From Longimicrobiales bacterium (lineage in GTDB: Bacteria; Gemmatimonadota; Gemmatimonadetes; Longimicrobiales; Gaopeijiaceae), in NCBI GenBank assembly GCA_965116905.1, contig OZ220732.1, positions 3,904,001-3,968,000 of the forward strand: 64,000 nucleotides of DNA. Reading direction: 5' to 3'. The notes beneath the pieces were generated by a model. The model was not told the origin of the DNA and searched no databases. It was given only the letters and a program-made list of their open reading frames with translations. The position numbers and the translations under genes were made by a program. Below, piece after piece: positions 24,539-30,105 of this stretch; within the stretch, counting starts at the first letter, position 1; the number at the start of each line of letters is the position of its first letter.

Positions 24539-24594
24539 GGGAAAACCCCCAAGAGATACAGGGTTTTCCCTCAAGAGATACAGGGTTTTCCCTC
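24539..24594. promoter_or_regulatory. Three 22-bp-phased GGG(A4/T4)CCC boxes including a perfect 22-bp tandem duplication
   Basis: GGGAAAACCC at 24539, GGGTTTTCCC at 24561 and 24583; CAAGAGATACAGGGTTTTCCCT x2 (24550-24593). Confidence 0.7.
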
Positions 24595-24684
24595 TATTCC
24601 CGCACCACTGTCGCTTGCGAACGTTAGTGCACGTCCCGTGAAAGGGTGACGGGCGATACAACCACCCCCACAAGGAGGGGACAA

Positions 24685-24957
24685 ATGTCTCGATGGATCT
24701 CGACCCTGGCTCTGGTGCTGCTGTTCGCTGTCGGAATGGCCATCGGAGCAACCGGCGGCCCGCAACCGCTGAGCGCTTCCGAGACGTGCGAGGAGGACGT
24801 CTGCGACTACGCTCCCGGTTGGCTCAGCTGGTTGCTGAGTGATCACTGCATCCCCGAGCCTGGCGTCCAGAGTAGCTGCGACATGCTATCCGACAAGCGC
24901 TGTAAGACTCGACCCTGCGATCCCGCGGGAGGTGATGACGACGAAGACGAAGAATAG
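24685..24957 (+). CDS. Secreted six-cysteine mini-protein (90 aa) with acidic tail
   Basis: AAGGAGG RBS; hydrophobic signal peptide; mature part ETCEEDVC...HC...SC...RCKTRPC then DDDEDEE. Confidence 0.8.
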   Translation: MSRWISTLALVLLFAVGMAIGATGGPQPLSASETCEEDVCDYAPGWLSWLLSDHCIPEPGVQSSCDMLSDKRCKTRPCDPAGGDDDEDEE

Positions 24958-25040
24958 CGCGTCCGATGCCACTGCCGGGCGGTTTCCGCGATCCGCTCTT
25001 TTCGATTGGGAAACCGCCCGGCAAGACACCTGGAGGTCTC

Positions 25041-27422: not shown

Positions 27423-27440
27423 GTCAAGGAGAGCATACAC

Positions 27441-28334
27441 ATGGCAAGCCGGAGTGCAGTGAGCGCAAGAACCCTTGGACTAATGTGGATTTGGGCGGTG
27501 GCCTCGGTTGGGTGCGACTACACGCGCCCTTCCGACGTGTTCGTGCCCGACGGAGATGTCATCGCCATCGGGGTGGTTCTAAGTGCGGGATGGCGGACCG
27601 CTTACATGATCGCCACGCACCCACACCGGCCAGGAACAGCCGACGCGCCCGTCGTGGATGCGGTCCTGACGGGCCCGAATGGCCTTGCAGCGTTCAATCG
27701 GGAAGTGGCACCGAAGCATTGTAGTGTTCTCATCGCGGATTTCTGGCATGGGCCACACGTTTGCCTGGAGGCAATACTGCCCGCCCCGGTCCTGAGCGGC
27801 GAGCGCTACACGCTGGAAGGAACAACCCGCCTGGGTCGGTTTGAAGGGATGACGGTCGTGCCGAACCCGGTGAGCATACGTGATCCCAAGGGCGAAATCG
27901 TCTTGCGGCCGGTAAGGTACTACGGCAACGACATCGTCCGTCTGACTTTGAGCTTTGAAAGCCCGCCGGAAGTGGGCATGGTCGTCGTTTCAGCGGCCCA
28001 GGCCGTACAAATGGTCGCGGACAGCGCGGGCAACCTGTCGGCAGAGCCGAGTTTGCTTTCGTATGTCCTGCCGCGTGAGGCCGATCCGGATCAGCGCAGC
28101 GTGGATCTGCGGGTCTGGTCCAATCCGGAATTCCCTTGGCGGCCACCCGAGGCCCGGTTCAACCTGCGCCTGGTGGGGTTAGACGAGAATGCGGGCCGTT
28201 TCGCGTCGTATCGGTACAATGACCTGATCGTCAAACCCTGGCCGAGCTTTGGCCTCGTCGGCGATGACGGCATCTACGGGTACTTCGGCTCCGCGTCTCG
28301 ATCGAGGGCGATACCGGTGATTGTGAGGCCATGA
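27441..28334 (+). CDS. DUF4249-like lipoprotein (TBDR partner)
   Basis: SVGC lipobox; C-terminal GIYGYFGS motif; directly downstream of the TBDR. Confidence 0.65.
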   Translation: MASRSAVSARTLGLMWIWAVASVGCDYTRPSDVFVPDGDVIAIGVVLSAGWRTAYMIATHPHRPGTADAPVVDAVLTGPNGLAAFNREVAPKHCSVLIADFWHGPHVCLEAILPAPVLSGERYTLEGTTRLGRFEGMTVVPNPVSIRDPKGEIVLRPVRYYGNDIVRLTLSFESPPEVGMVVVSAAQAVQMVADSAGNLSAEPSLLSYVLPREADPDQRSVDLRVWSNPEFPWRPPEARFNLRLVGLDENAGRFASYRYNDLIVKPWPSFGLVGDDGIYGYFGSASRSRAIPVIVRP

Positions 28335-29515
28335 TGAAGAACGAACATGTTATGAGATGCTGGGAGTTTTTGTCGGCTGGGGTAGCAACCGCATGCCTGA
28401 TCTCGTTCACGGCCTGCGACGCCGGCCGACGTAACGAGACATCCCACCCACTGCCGGATAGGATCCCAGGCTCCGAGGGTGCCATCACTATCGAACACGA
28501 CCCCGCGCCCCATGGCATTGACGGTGCGACGCTCGAGCGGTGGCTTGGAGCGCGCGAAACACTACTGAACACCAGGCTGTTCGCGACGATCGGGAGCCAG
28601 ACGACTGAGGCGCCGGATCTCCTGGGACTCGTCGCCGACGTGGTCGTGGACAGAGCGCGAGATCTCCTTTTCGTCCTGGACGAGCAGGCGCAGGAAGTTC
28701 GAATCTTTACCTTGCGCGGCGACTTTGTCGACGCTTTCGGCGGGATTGGCGACGGACCCTCCGACCTGCGTCTCGCCAATTCAATTGAGCTGATCAGTGG
28801 AGGCCGGGTGTTGGTGGGGACACTCAATCTCCAGGCCAAGGTGTTTGCCGCAACTCCAAACGGCTGGCAGGCCGAACACATTGTTCCCCTGCCGTCCGGG
28901 GCCAGAGGCCTGTGCGCTGGCGCGCGGAATAGAGTATTCGTCAATGCCCATGATCGAAAGACAAACCAACTCGTTCACGAGATCAACCTGAACGCTGGGA
29001 CGGACACCACCCTCCTCAGCGGATTCGCGGGCGGGTATGAGCACGACAATTGGCTGGTGCAAAGGTATCTGGGCACGGGTTCGCTCGCGTGCCTCGCGAT
29101 GCCCCGTCCTCTGGTCGTATTCGGACATGCAAGCATACCGATACTACGGGCTTATGATCCCGATAGTCGCGATCTGGTTTGGGCCAGCCAGCTAACGCAC
29201 TTCACGCCGGTTCAACTGTATTCGGGCACCGACGCCAAGGGCGACTACATCTACCAGGATCGCCCAGAGGAGTGGGACTTTGTGGGTGCCGTCCATAGCA
29301 TTCTGGACATGTACCTTTTGGTGCAGGTAGGCCATGGCGACAGCACTCGCCAAGAACTGACCGTGAAGAGCTATTTGCTCGACGCTCGAACGGGGCACGG
29401 CGCATTCATCGGCGACGAACTGCCCCGGCTCATACCCTATGAGCACGGGTATGTTGGGATCTTCGAAGATCCCTATCCGCGCTTGGAGCTGCGCGTGTTC
29501 CGGGAGGCAACATGA
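28331..29515 (+). CDS. 6-bladed beta-propeller lipoprotein
   Basis: FTAC lipobox; FVLDEQAQEVRIF...FGGIGDGPSDL blade motif; ATGA coupling to the upstream gene. Confidence 0.75.
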   Translation: MMKNEHVMRCWEFLSAGVATACLISFTACDAGRRNETSHPLPDRIPGSEGAITIEHDPAPHGIDGATLERWLGARETLLNTRLFATIGSQTTEAPDLLGLVADVVVDRARDLLFVLDEQAQEVRIFTLRGDFVDAFGGIGDGPSDLRLANSIELISGGRVLVGTLNLQAKVFAATPNGWQAEHIVPLPSGARGLCAGARNRVFVNAHDRKTNQLVHEINLNAGTDTTLLSGFAGGYEHDNWLVQRYLGTGSLACLAMPRPLVVFGHASIPILRAYDPDSRDLVWASQLTHFTPVQLYSGTDAKGDYIYQDRPEEWDFVGAVHSILDMYLLVQVGHGDSTRQELTVKSYLLDARTGHGAFIGDELPRLIPYEHGYVGIFEDPYPRLELRVFREAT

Positions 29516-30105
29516 CTCCCAATGCACGGAAGTTCTGGTTGGGTTTGGCGGTATTGGTGTCCGGCATCGCTCTCGGATCCGCACTGAAAGGGATTGATCT
29601 AGTGCCCACGCTGAGCATACGGTGGCCGGACCGGACACCTGGGGCCTATCGCCCCGGCACCGTCGTCGGAGCCCGCGACAGCGGAGAGATCGTGTTCGTC
29701 TACGTCGGCTCGTCCCGATGCGTATGGTCAAACCTTCCCGAGACACCGCAAACCGTGCGGGACGCCAAGAGGATGGTGGCTACCCGCGCACGCGAGGCAG
29801 GCATGGGGTTTGCTGCCCTTGGCATCGCCGTTGACCCGGACGCCATCGCCGGGTGGGCGCATCTGGATCAATTCGGTCTCTTCGATGAGGCAATTGTTGG
29901 CAAGGGATGGCGGAATACGGGCAGTCGGAGGTACATATACGGACCCTTGAGCGGGTCGGCGGCAACCCCGCAGCTACTGGTGACGATACGATCGACCTCT
30001 GGCATGAAGAATGACGAGCGCGTCCTTCTCCGCAAGATCGGCTCCACTGGCATCGCTCGCTGGGTCGCCGATGGCGCGCCACTACCGCCGTTGACCGAAC
30101 CGTAG
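29512..30105 (+). CDS. Membrane-anchored thioredoxin-fold protein (CxxS)
   Basis: N-terminal TM; IVFVYVGSSRCVWS and ATPQLLV (cis-Pro-like) motifs; ATGA coupling. Confidence 0.6.
   Translation: MTPNARKFWLGLAVLVSGIALGSALKGIDLVPTLSIRWPDRTPGAYRPGTVVGARDSGEIVFVYVGSSRCVWSNLPETPQTVRDAKRMVATRAREAGMGFAALGIAVDPDAIAGWAHLDQFGLFDEAIVGKGWRNTGSRRYIYGPLSGSAATPQLLVTIRSTSGMKNDERVLLRKIGSTGIARWVADGAPLPPLTEP

Follow-up and report, generated by a model that had tools for sequence, protein, structure and literature searches.

The window considered here, a 64,000-nucleotide stretch of the genome of a Longimicrobiales bacterium (contig OZ220732.1, positions 3,904,001 to 3,968,000), carries on its + strand, at 24685..30105, a cassette of five co-oriented genes lying as cargo in what its sequence identifies as an integrative mobilizable element. 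Three of these genes are the conserved core: they encode a secreted mini-protein with six Cys, a six-bladed beta-propeller lipoprotein and an anchored thioredoxin-fold protein. The cassette is real and conserved, it belongs to no curated family and is apparently undescribed. From sequence comparisons and predicted structures we suppose, with a confidence that falls just short of even, that the core trio provides an exported disulfide mini-protein and its cognate propeller, which would behave as a diversifying lock-and-key pair in strain-specific recognition or antagonism. The five genes are:

24685..24957, + strand: six-Cys mini-protein precursor, 90 aa, with AAGGAGG 5′ of its ATG
25041..27422, + strand: TonB-dependent receptor (TBDR), non-SusC, 793 aa, with a CarboxypepD_reg extension, a plug and a C-terminal Phe; optional part
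27441..28334, + strand: lipoprotein, likely the lid of the TBDR, 297 aa, remotely DUF4249-like; optional part
28331..29515, + strand: NHL/DUF5128-type six-bladed beta-propeller lipoprotein, 394 aa, with invariant Cys195/Cys254; core part
29512..30105, + strand: N-terminally anchored thioredoxin-fold protein, 197 aa, with C70-V-W-S and T152-P153; core part

The last three genes are linked by ATGA overlaps at 28331 and 29512. A first-pass annotation of this stretch had described the five co-oriented open reading frames (ORFs), the ribosome-binding site, the Cys spacing and the two overlaps, all of which are borne out by the sequence. It had also taken the five genes for one obligate system, a view that does not survive comparison with other loci. 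We compiled 97 thioredoxin-anchored loci (100 regions around chosen thioredoxin matches plus two loci of the own genome, minus five with a fragmentary thioredoxin). A peptide was accepted if co-oriented, signal-bearing, with 5-8 Cys and at most 6.5 kb away, and a propeller if at most 2.5 kb away. A peptide is present at 77 loci, a propeller at 83 and both at 71, and the TBDR-lipoprotein pair, mostly found alone elsewhere, at 15 (14 of these with a peptide). Near random anchors the same filter finds a peptide in 1.1% of 20,000 cases. Because the loci share ancestry and include near-copies, they do not count as independent draws. The conserved core is thus three genes, not five, and the conserved peptide ORF beside homologous operons, which the first-pass annotation had proposed to look for, does exist. 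We also considered that any propeller of the genome might pair with such a peptide and rejected this idea, since only one of 106 propeller anchors does.

The thioredoxin family was found in 23 of 61 relatives, in at least 61 of 401 genomes of the phylum (a lower bound, eight candidates being scored per genome) and in 16 of 401 genomes drawn from a second phylum, that of a Saprospiraceae record, which we take to be Bacteroidota. Twelve loci of this second phylum, all short spans, include eight with a propeller and six with a peptide of the six-Cys type (five whole ORFs and one profile match at an edge), and none of the 12 has a TBDR of the window type. A search of metagenome contigs with the thioredoxin returned no locus. 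Tandem peptide-propeller repeats occur, extra peptide copies per propeller are common, and in two loci (L071 and L072) thioredoxin and propeller are naturally fused. A soluble PAS kinase and a LuxR regulator adjoin 12-13 of the 97 loci and are absent beside the window cassette.

The mini-protein has its Cys at 35/40/55/65/73/78 (C-x4-C-x14-C-x9-C-x7-C-x4-C), behind a hydrophobic N-terminus in which a signal peptide would span about residues 1-31. Loop 2 is Trp-rich, the Gly/acidic tail ends in DDDEDEE and the core has a net charge of -13; the 90-aa ORF with a strong ribosome-binding site, a signal, exactly six Cys and an acidic tail had thus been correctly read. A signal-plus-Cys filter gives 32 matches in the genome, roughly 18 of them plausible Cys peptides, against four in the reversed genome. 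Used alone, the peptide retrieves two proteins, itself and one at 63%, while a 45-row peptide profile retrieves 14 and an Atlas search with the peptide gave no usable match. The loci contain 98 distinct peptides, 85 of them with six Cys; among these 85 the first gap is 4 in 68 and the last gap 4 in 65, and loop 2 counts 3-19 residues. In the 45-row alignment the six Cys are the sole invariant columns and the remainder is hypervariable, precisely the pattern beside homologous operons that had been set as a check of the original proposal.

The AlphaFold2 model of the mini-protein (mean pLDDT 83.5) displays four short strands and no helix in the core. No match to the peptide was found in Pfam, NCBIfam or PADLOC, and the model has no PDB match by Foldseek at E<=0.001 or by VIA-align at Z>=2, both methods being weak on tiny domains; such a lack of structural match would neither show nor exclude a cystine knot. 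Like a knottin, the mini-protein has six conserved Cys within a small core; the consensus Cys spacing of knottins differs from its own. In the complex model discussed below, residue 40 lies beside strand 73-77, which merely fits a C2-C5 bond. Defensins are cationic and amphipathic; the mini-protein is strongly acidic, only 8 of 95 family members are net positive, and no defensin fold or family match was obtained, a single row of 45 touching Defensin_beta at E 0.078 only. The knottin/defensin-like label given earlier is therefore not confirmed.

Several loci depart from the simple precursor. Five encode the six-Cys domain as part of a longer protein, joined to a helical domain of 150 aa that belongs to no family; an additional signal peptidase I gene often comes next (L040:10310-11056, L041:6526-7242, L120:8612-9325, L124:8583-9290 and L126:9808-10515). 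Three otherwise complete cassettes carry peptide copies that lack the third Cys or are split (L056:4762-5037, L133:3088-3375 and L158:7577-7942), and degraded sequences of this kind suggest that the peptide has been lost more than once.

The window propeller matches DUF5128 weakly (E 0.008, under the cut-off), while among its aligned relatives DUF5128 is matched by 30 of 57 at E<=0.001 and NHL by 9 of 57. The best solved relatives of the propeller profile are animal TRIM-NHL domains. The genome encodes about 100 NHL/DUF5128-like propellers (106 matches), and those of the cassettes constitute a subfamily of their own, nearer to each other than to these others. That the propeller could be the partner of the peptide, as proposed in the first-pass annotation, is supported by a predicted complex scoring 0.65 (three runs: 0.65, 0.34 and 0.65), the best of three controls reaching 0.02. 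The mark used for this score is reached by 116 of 157 solved pairs against 2 of 215 mismatched ones. The runs share at least 45% of contacts, with a partner pLDDT of at least 47. This model supports binding of the peptide by the propeller without showing it.

In the model, Trp46 contacts propeller residues 319, 334, 343, 366 and 377, and peptide strand 73-77 pairs with propeller residues 303-309 in a large interface. The 13 closest propellers, which go with peptides bearing the Trp-rich loop, all have G319, G334 and R366; beyond them these residues vary. Co-divergence was measured over 28 loci in which the pair is unequivocal, after exclusion of three ambiguous rows; mean identity there is 16% for the peptide core, 34% for the propeller and 40% for the thioredoxin. 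The partial rank correlation is 0.44 for peptide and propeller (thioredoxin held) versus 0.13 for peptide and thioredoxin. Predicted interface columns give a correlation of 0.23 versus 0.08 for the matched null, with 8 of 300 as high.

The third core member retains its active-site Cys in 150 of 150 homologues, as CxxS in 114, CxxC in 20, CxxA in 14 and CxxT in 2. The T-P motif is conserved in the family, and by sequence and model it would form the expected cis-Pro loop. The model (pLDDT 90.7) matches DsbE/ResA/TlpA-like proteins in Foldseek (best E 1.7e-4), with CVWS in place of their dithiol CxxC. The earlier description of a membrane-anchored thioredoxin-fold CVWS protein thus stands, now with a TlpA/ResA-like fold and an invariant Cys. 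The family is large and unnamed (1,468 clusters); two of its three best Atlas clusters are commonest in Gemmatimonadota. Pfam returned a single Thioredoxin_8 match on 118 rows, and a PDB sequence search with the profile gave nothing at E<0.1. Since no internal redox disulfide is possible in the CxxS protein, it could act as an isomerase or a holding chaperone, roles for which monothiol thioredoxin-fold proteins provide the basis. The genome further encodes DsbA-like, VKOR and DsbD proteins; a search for DsbB found none, VKOR being present instead. A second member of the thioredoxin family (L004, G000:C1:2677559-2678554) is followed by a 72-aa six-Cys peptide of C-x-C type, without a propeller.

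Public contigs contain a second allele of the peptide, as the exclusive form in X1, a sponge metatranscriptome run, and as a minority in run X3. Over a 4.1-kb stretch in X1, 10 of 32 differences fall within the 180-nt mature part (binomial p 7e-7). They change residues G45S, S48R, P57A and L68V, leave five codons silent and hit no Cys, while the lipoprotein and the covered part of the propeller are identical to the window. In the X1 contig the peptide start codon reads ACG.

How might the trio work? The peptide would be exported by Sec, its signal being cleaved near residue 31, and the DsbA-like/VKOR pair, a housekeeping system of this bacterium, would oxidise it. The CxxS protein may then proof-read its disulfides, as isomerase or holding chaperone. 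Trp46 is predicted to enter a Gly/Gly/Arg-lined pocket on the propeller face while strand 73-77 pairs with propeller residues 303-309, the propeller serving as cognate receptor or immunity protein. Strains living together could acquire new peptide-propeller pairs through the mobile element. The lidded TBDR of this lineage would import the peptide, own or neighbour's, or an unrelated nutrient; this is the weakest step of the scheme.

Several observations weigh against the lock-and-key pair. One of the three complex runs scored only 0.34, with a partner pLDDT of 48, and the complex was modelled on our own alignments, to which the calibration applies only approximately. Neither the pocket test nor the co-divergence test is independent, because both use the same alignments and related genomes. 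Twenty of the 97 loci have no peptide by our filter, five of them being stand-alone thioredoxins without a propeller; in 7 of 13 peptide-less loci checked, the profile found whole, fused or broken copies, and some others are contig ends. The two thioredoxin domains fused to a propeller (L071, L072) have no Cys. The peptides are mostly acidic, unlike membrane-lytic antimicrobials, and 82 of the 97 loci have no nearby outer-membrane channel of the TBDR type, which makes release of the peptide from the cell hard to account for. Finally, in X1 and X3 the peptide is altered, with two changes in the predicted interface, and the covered propeller is not, which disfavours a tight lock and key; as half of the codon changes are silent, a recombined patch accounts for the allele as well as selection does.

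The lock-and-key pair may be part of something larger, although we consider this extension unlikely as a whole. The cassettes would be a phylum-wide polymorphic ligand-receptor class of enzyme-free disulfide mini-proteins, each with a propeller receptor and a monothiol foldase, swapped on mobile elements. In this lineage the lidded TBDR would have been recruited to carry the folded mini-protein through the outer membrane; genomes with the transporter only would eavesdrop or cheat.

Also unlikely in our view, to a similar degree, is that the peptide has no intercellular role and is an envelope-resident variable subunit or plug of the propeller (an adhesin, a sensor or a regulated enzyme), beside which the TBDR and its lid would be a hitch-hiking nutrient importer like BT2172/BT2173. 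The absence of an outer-membrane transporter from most cassettes fits such a resident subunit, as do the predicted strand addition with its large interface, the fusions to a helical domain and the nutrient import proposed, in the accessible part of the source, for DUF4249-lidded TonB-dependent transporters (TBDTs; 10.1101/2023.03.17.533168). The about 100 propellers of the genome point in the same direction, to a surface-interaction repertoire. Yet the predicted complex buries the most variable loop in the propeller, with little left for display, and the separate hairpin 3′ of the peptide gene (24973..25023) suggests excess peptide; extra peptide copies per propeller are common.

The place of the TBDR and its lipoprotein bears most directly on the next possibility, export. 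Plug (E 1.7e-6) and CarboxypepD_reg (E 5.6e-10) both score over their Pfam cut-offs; the barrel model has no match, and the protein is 26% identical over 836 columns to a barrel-positive paralogue that adjoins a true DUF4249 gene. It thus has the plug and the barrel ending in Phe of a TonB-dependent transporter. No STN domain match was found in the TBDR and no anti-sigma/ECF pair in the element, so that sensing through TBDR signalling, suggested earlier, is not supported. In the lipoprotein, the GYFGS motif is present (residues 280-284 of 297), near the end and not terminal as first described. Its DUF4249 label was not confirmed by Pfam: PF14054 matches none of nine aligned rows and none of six further relatives. 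By hhalign it aligns with a Pfam DUF4249 protein of this genome (58%, E 1e-4, 101 columns). In nearly every locus inspected, the gene comes directly after a TBDR of this subfamily, and from its sequence and position the product is likely the TBDR lid; one of its relatives has a Gemmatimonadota source.

An obligate five-part pathway, in which this pair would export the folded peptide in an Oar/PopC-like manner, appears improbable. The accessible part of PMC6434023 does provide a precedent for TBDT-dependent secretion. Moreover, in a quick tree of 70 lipoprotein rows, one well-supported clade of 31 unites 20 of the 21 peptide-linked rows with 11 scattered peptide-less ones; peptide, TBDR and lipoprotein are duplicated as a unit in L070, L127 and L128; and a Gly/acidic tail of at least 10 residues is present in 11 of 11 peptides of TBDR cassettes against 7 of 84 others. 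This last correlation reflects, however, no more than 2-4 changes when traced on the thioredoxin tree. Against export, the pair is missing from 82 of the 97 loci, and the closest TBDR relatives (83% and 78%) stand alone. The same genome has two stand-alone paralogues of the pair, with TBDRs at 78% and 48% identity; a search of genome contigs with the TBDR gave one remote locus. The pair occurs in 38 of 53 genus genomes, in up to 17 copies, and 42 lipoprotein-anchored loci chosen outside the thioredoxin set comprise 39 without peptide, two whole cassettes and one broken peptide. The export postulated in the first-pass annotation is thus not upheld. The transporter is kept after peptide loss (11 of 31 clade rows), which favours import over export. 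Judging from these sequence comparisons, we take the pair for a recruited optional add-on, with perhaps even odds of a functional tie to the peptide. Tandem TBDR-lipoprotein arrays without peptides are found at L164-L175; that each array hides a peptide was rejected on inspection.

Quite improbable too is a protein metallophore or a thiol/redox buffer, recycled by the thioredoxin and recaptured by the TBDR. Six Cys with a net charge of -13, the TBDR linkage in one clade and the PAS kinase and LuxR regulator beside some loci would suit it. The Cys set is even and invariant, and it sits on a beta-sheet scaffold that is modelled with confidence and bears hypervariable loops, which rather fits disulfides; 98 different sequences would be needless for a scavenger, and no metal regulator or metal transporter is among the recurring neighbours. 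Least probable is an effector directed at the sponge (e.g. at host NHL-propeller proteins), with the own propeller as chaperone: the stretch is present in a sponge metatranscriptome run, the propeller profile resembles animal TRIM-NHL domains and sponges are rich in cystine-bridged peptides, but the module extends far beyond one genus, to 61 of 401 phylum genomes and a second phylum, and barrettides are traced to the sponge's own genes (both sponge statements from the accessible part of PMC12426817).

By analogy, the cassette would behave like a disulfide bacteriocin or a peptide signal that brings along a foldase and a cognate partner. Pediocin/PedC and sublancin/BdbAB are unmodified disulfide bacteriocins with a thiol-disulfide oxidoreductase and an immunity protein. 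The cassette shares with them a small exported Cys peptide, a dedicated thioredoxin-fold protein, a cognate partner and mobile DNA. It differs by its Sec-type signal, the lack of ABC exporter and peptidase, the acidic peptide, the monothiol CxxS, the propeller-lipoprotein partner and the diderm host. A RiPP or ABC-exported bacteriocin cluster would include a modifying enzyme, a leader peptidase or an ABC exporter; none of these is in the element, as already stated in the first-pass annotation. Bacteroidales have neighbourhoods, still uncharacterised, of an NVEALA small protein with a DUF5128 propeller, on which our literature search found no paper. These resemble the cassette in the small secreted protein beside a six-bladed propeller lipoprotein, and 30 of 57 propellers match DUF5128, but none of 45 peptides matches NVEALA (PF14055). 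In NHLRC2/SOQ1 a thioredoxin-like domain is fused to an NHL propeller, a combination echoed by the fusions in L071 and L072; here, however, they are separate envelope proteins accompanied by a dedicated variable peptide.

Other resemblances are partial. With knottins and defensins, including the sponge asteropsins and barrettides (accessible part of PMC12426817), the mini-protein shares a signal peptide and a small six-Cys core; it differs by being acidic, encoded by a bacterial gene and without PDB fold or family match. BT2172/BT2173 of Bacteroides thetaiotaomicron form a non-SusC TBDT with a DUF4249 lid, according to the accessible parts of 10.1101/2023.03.17.533168 and PMC11003636. As there, our TBDR is directly followed by a lipoprotein of 280-300 aa with a C-terminal G-x-F motif, in a conserved pair with remote DUF4249 profile likeness; unlike there, Pfam DUF4249 has no match, and those parts do not describe peptide, propeller or thioredoxin. 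Oar/PopC of Myxococcus xanthus is a TBDT system moving a periplasmic protein outwards, with no lid lipoprotein or peptide cassette in the part accessible (PMC6434023), while the window TBDR is dispensable for the cassette. A full-text literature search, with most subscription papers and supplementary family tables outside its coverage, found no paper describing the cassette, in agreement with the earlier view that it is not a characterised system. The accessible part of PMC10469786 has no occurrence of propeller, cysteine, RiPP, bacteriocin or TonB.

The mobile element and the non-coding features around the cassette are:

24148..24270, no strand: left flanking direct repeat, a quasi-palindromic 14-mer array 5′ of hsp20, likely attachment site
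24546..24589, + strand: two 22-nt direct repeats 5′ of the peptide gene, candidate regulator-binding or promoter element
24973..25023, + strand: intergenic RNA hairpin in the peptide/TBDR gap, -44 kcal/mol, z -3.84, 0/200 shuffles
31465..31803, + strand: mobC (PF05713, PF21983)
31793..33358, + strand: MbeA-like relaxase (PF03432; NF047848 at E 6e-33, below its cut-off)
32532-33026, + strand: ORF nested in the relaxase gene, of no family
33036-33314, + strand: MbeD-like ORF nested in the relaxase gene (PF04899, at its cut-off)
33460..34626, + strand: tyrosine integrase (PF00589, E 1.2e-16)
34704..34853, no strand: right flanking direct repeat; its part 34704-34826 gives the 124-nt match, 90% identical to the left copy

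With an integrase, a relaxase and mobC, flanking direct repeats and no mating-pair genes, the unit is, by its sequence, an integrative mobilizable element, and its insertion site lies upstream of hsp20. The cassette is indeed its only cargo, as first proposed, since no further ORF above 35 aa is called from 30105 to mobC. The GC content of this cargo is 62.9%, versus 67.7% for the whole single-contig 4.2-Mb genome. Relaxase and nested ORFs have the layout of ColE1-type mob regions, and mobC, the MbeA-like relaxase with nested ORFs, the tyrosine integrase and the flanking repeats are all as in integrative mobilizable elements of that type; the target, unlike theirs, is a repeat array upstream of hsp20 and not a tRNA (a tRNA search of the window found none). 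Within the genus the backbone is widespread, and at other sites it carries various other cargo. In relatives the region upstream of hsp20 normally contains the 14-mer array, against which related integrases end in 4 of 15 hsp20 regions fetched (L184-L187), so that the array is an integration hotspot; at L188 it is directly followed by the genes seen at window 36749 and beyond. In G018 (L184) a related peptide-TBDR cassette lies 1.6 kb from the integrase at the same hsp20 site, and integrase or mob genes are found in 7 of the 97 thioredoxin-anchored loci, window included. One X1 contig skips the right repeat copy; no circular joint of the element is among the public-contig matches listed, and a plasmid search for cassette loci found none. 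For this integrase family the array appears as a hotspot in either orientation, in the window (24148-24275) and in relatives L184-L201. An unrelated propeller gene lies just beyond the right repeat (window 34866-36123, - strand).

The two 22-nt direct repeats occupy the non-coding segment 24539-24684. Arrays of 2-4 copies exist at 6 sites of the genome, one of them upstream of a paralogous TBDR, and contigs of X1 and X3 contain one additional copy. The repeat was tried as a cassette-wide motif and rejected, being absent from the 300 nt upstream of the peptides in the 13 other TBDR cassettes tested. Outside the window, arrays with the 22-nt period lie upstream of genes at G000:C1 637425, 648916, 1571154, 1817015 and 2071901; several sit on mobile cargo, and copy number varies between strains. 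The hairpin at 24973..25023 likely stabilises or partly terminates the peptide transcript; a hairpin with z<-2 follows the peptide gene in 6 of 13 TBDR cassettes and 15 of 85 other cassettes. Scans of the locus gave no sigma-70 promoter match and terminator matches at chance level only, and neither Rfam (23500-35500) nor PADLOC gave any match. Neighbours in the 97 loci include a recurring extra signal peptidase I in 6 and MacB-type permeases in 7. The contigs of X1, the only data of this run, cover 24555-28810; they are unable to show transcription, because the flanks have similar depth and the thioredoxin gene is uncovered, and run X4 covers next to nothing of the stretch.

Other Cys peptides and precursors are encoded elsewhere in the genome. 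A second family, with a signal and eight Cys (CC...CC-x2-CC), lies beside thioredoxin-like genes at G000:C1 755595, 950825, 2797771 and 714311, three of the four sites being adjoined by ECF sigma/zinc-finger anti-sigma-like genes. Secreted Cys peptides of other spacings adjoin propellers and thioredoxin-fold genes at G000:C1 364753, 729070, 591183, 751068, 754176, 945359, 948322 and 3178673-3179471. Just before the window (G000:C1:3900342-3901963), precursor-like hydrophobic ORFs in tandem, which carry CxxC and C-x3-C motifs and GG/GRG-type junctions, stand beside an ABC transporter and look bacteriocin-like. At G000:C1 724910-727308, a small Ser/Cys precursor with neighbours that appear LanKC-like, LanC-like and ABC-like from their translations is likely part of a lanthipeptide cluster.

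Animals and plants, together with a few bacteriocins, have been the main source of mini-proteins that display hypervariable loops on a disulfide scaffold. The present hundred loci add nearly a hundred distinct sequences, all invisible to Pfam, NCBIfam and enzyme-centred cluster mining, and for each of them a cognate receptor can be proposed. They may give a role to part of the large propeller expansion, about 100 copies in this genome, and a named candidate substrate to a lidded TBDT family without known cargo. If the ligand-receptor class were real, it would be a bacterial counterpart of the cysteine-rich peptide signalling of plants and animals and a natural library of paired binders. The cassette may also reveal how co-resident strains of sponge symbionts discriminate each other.

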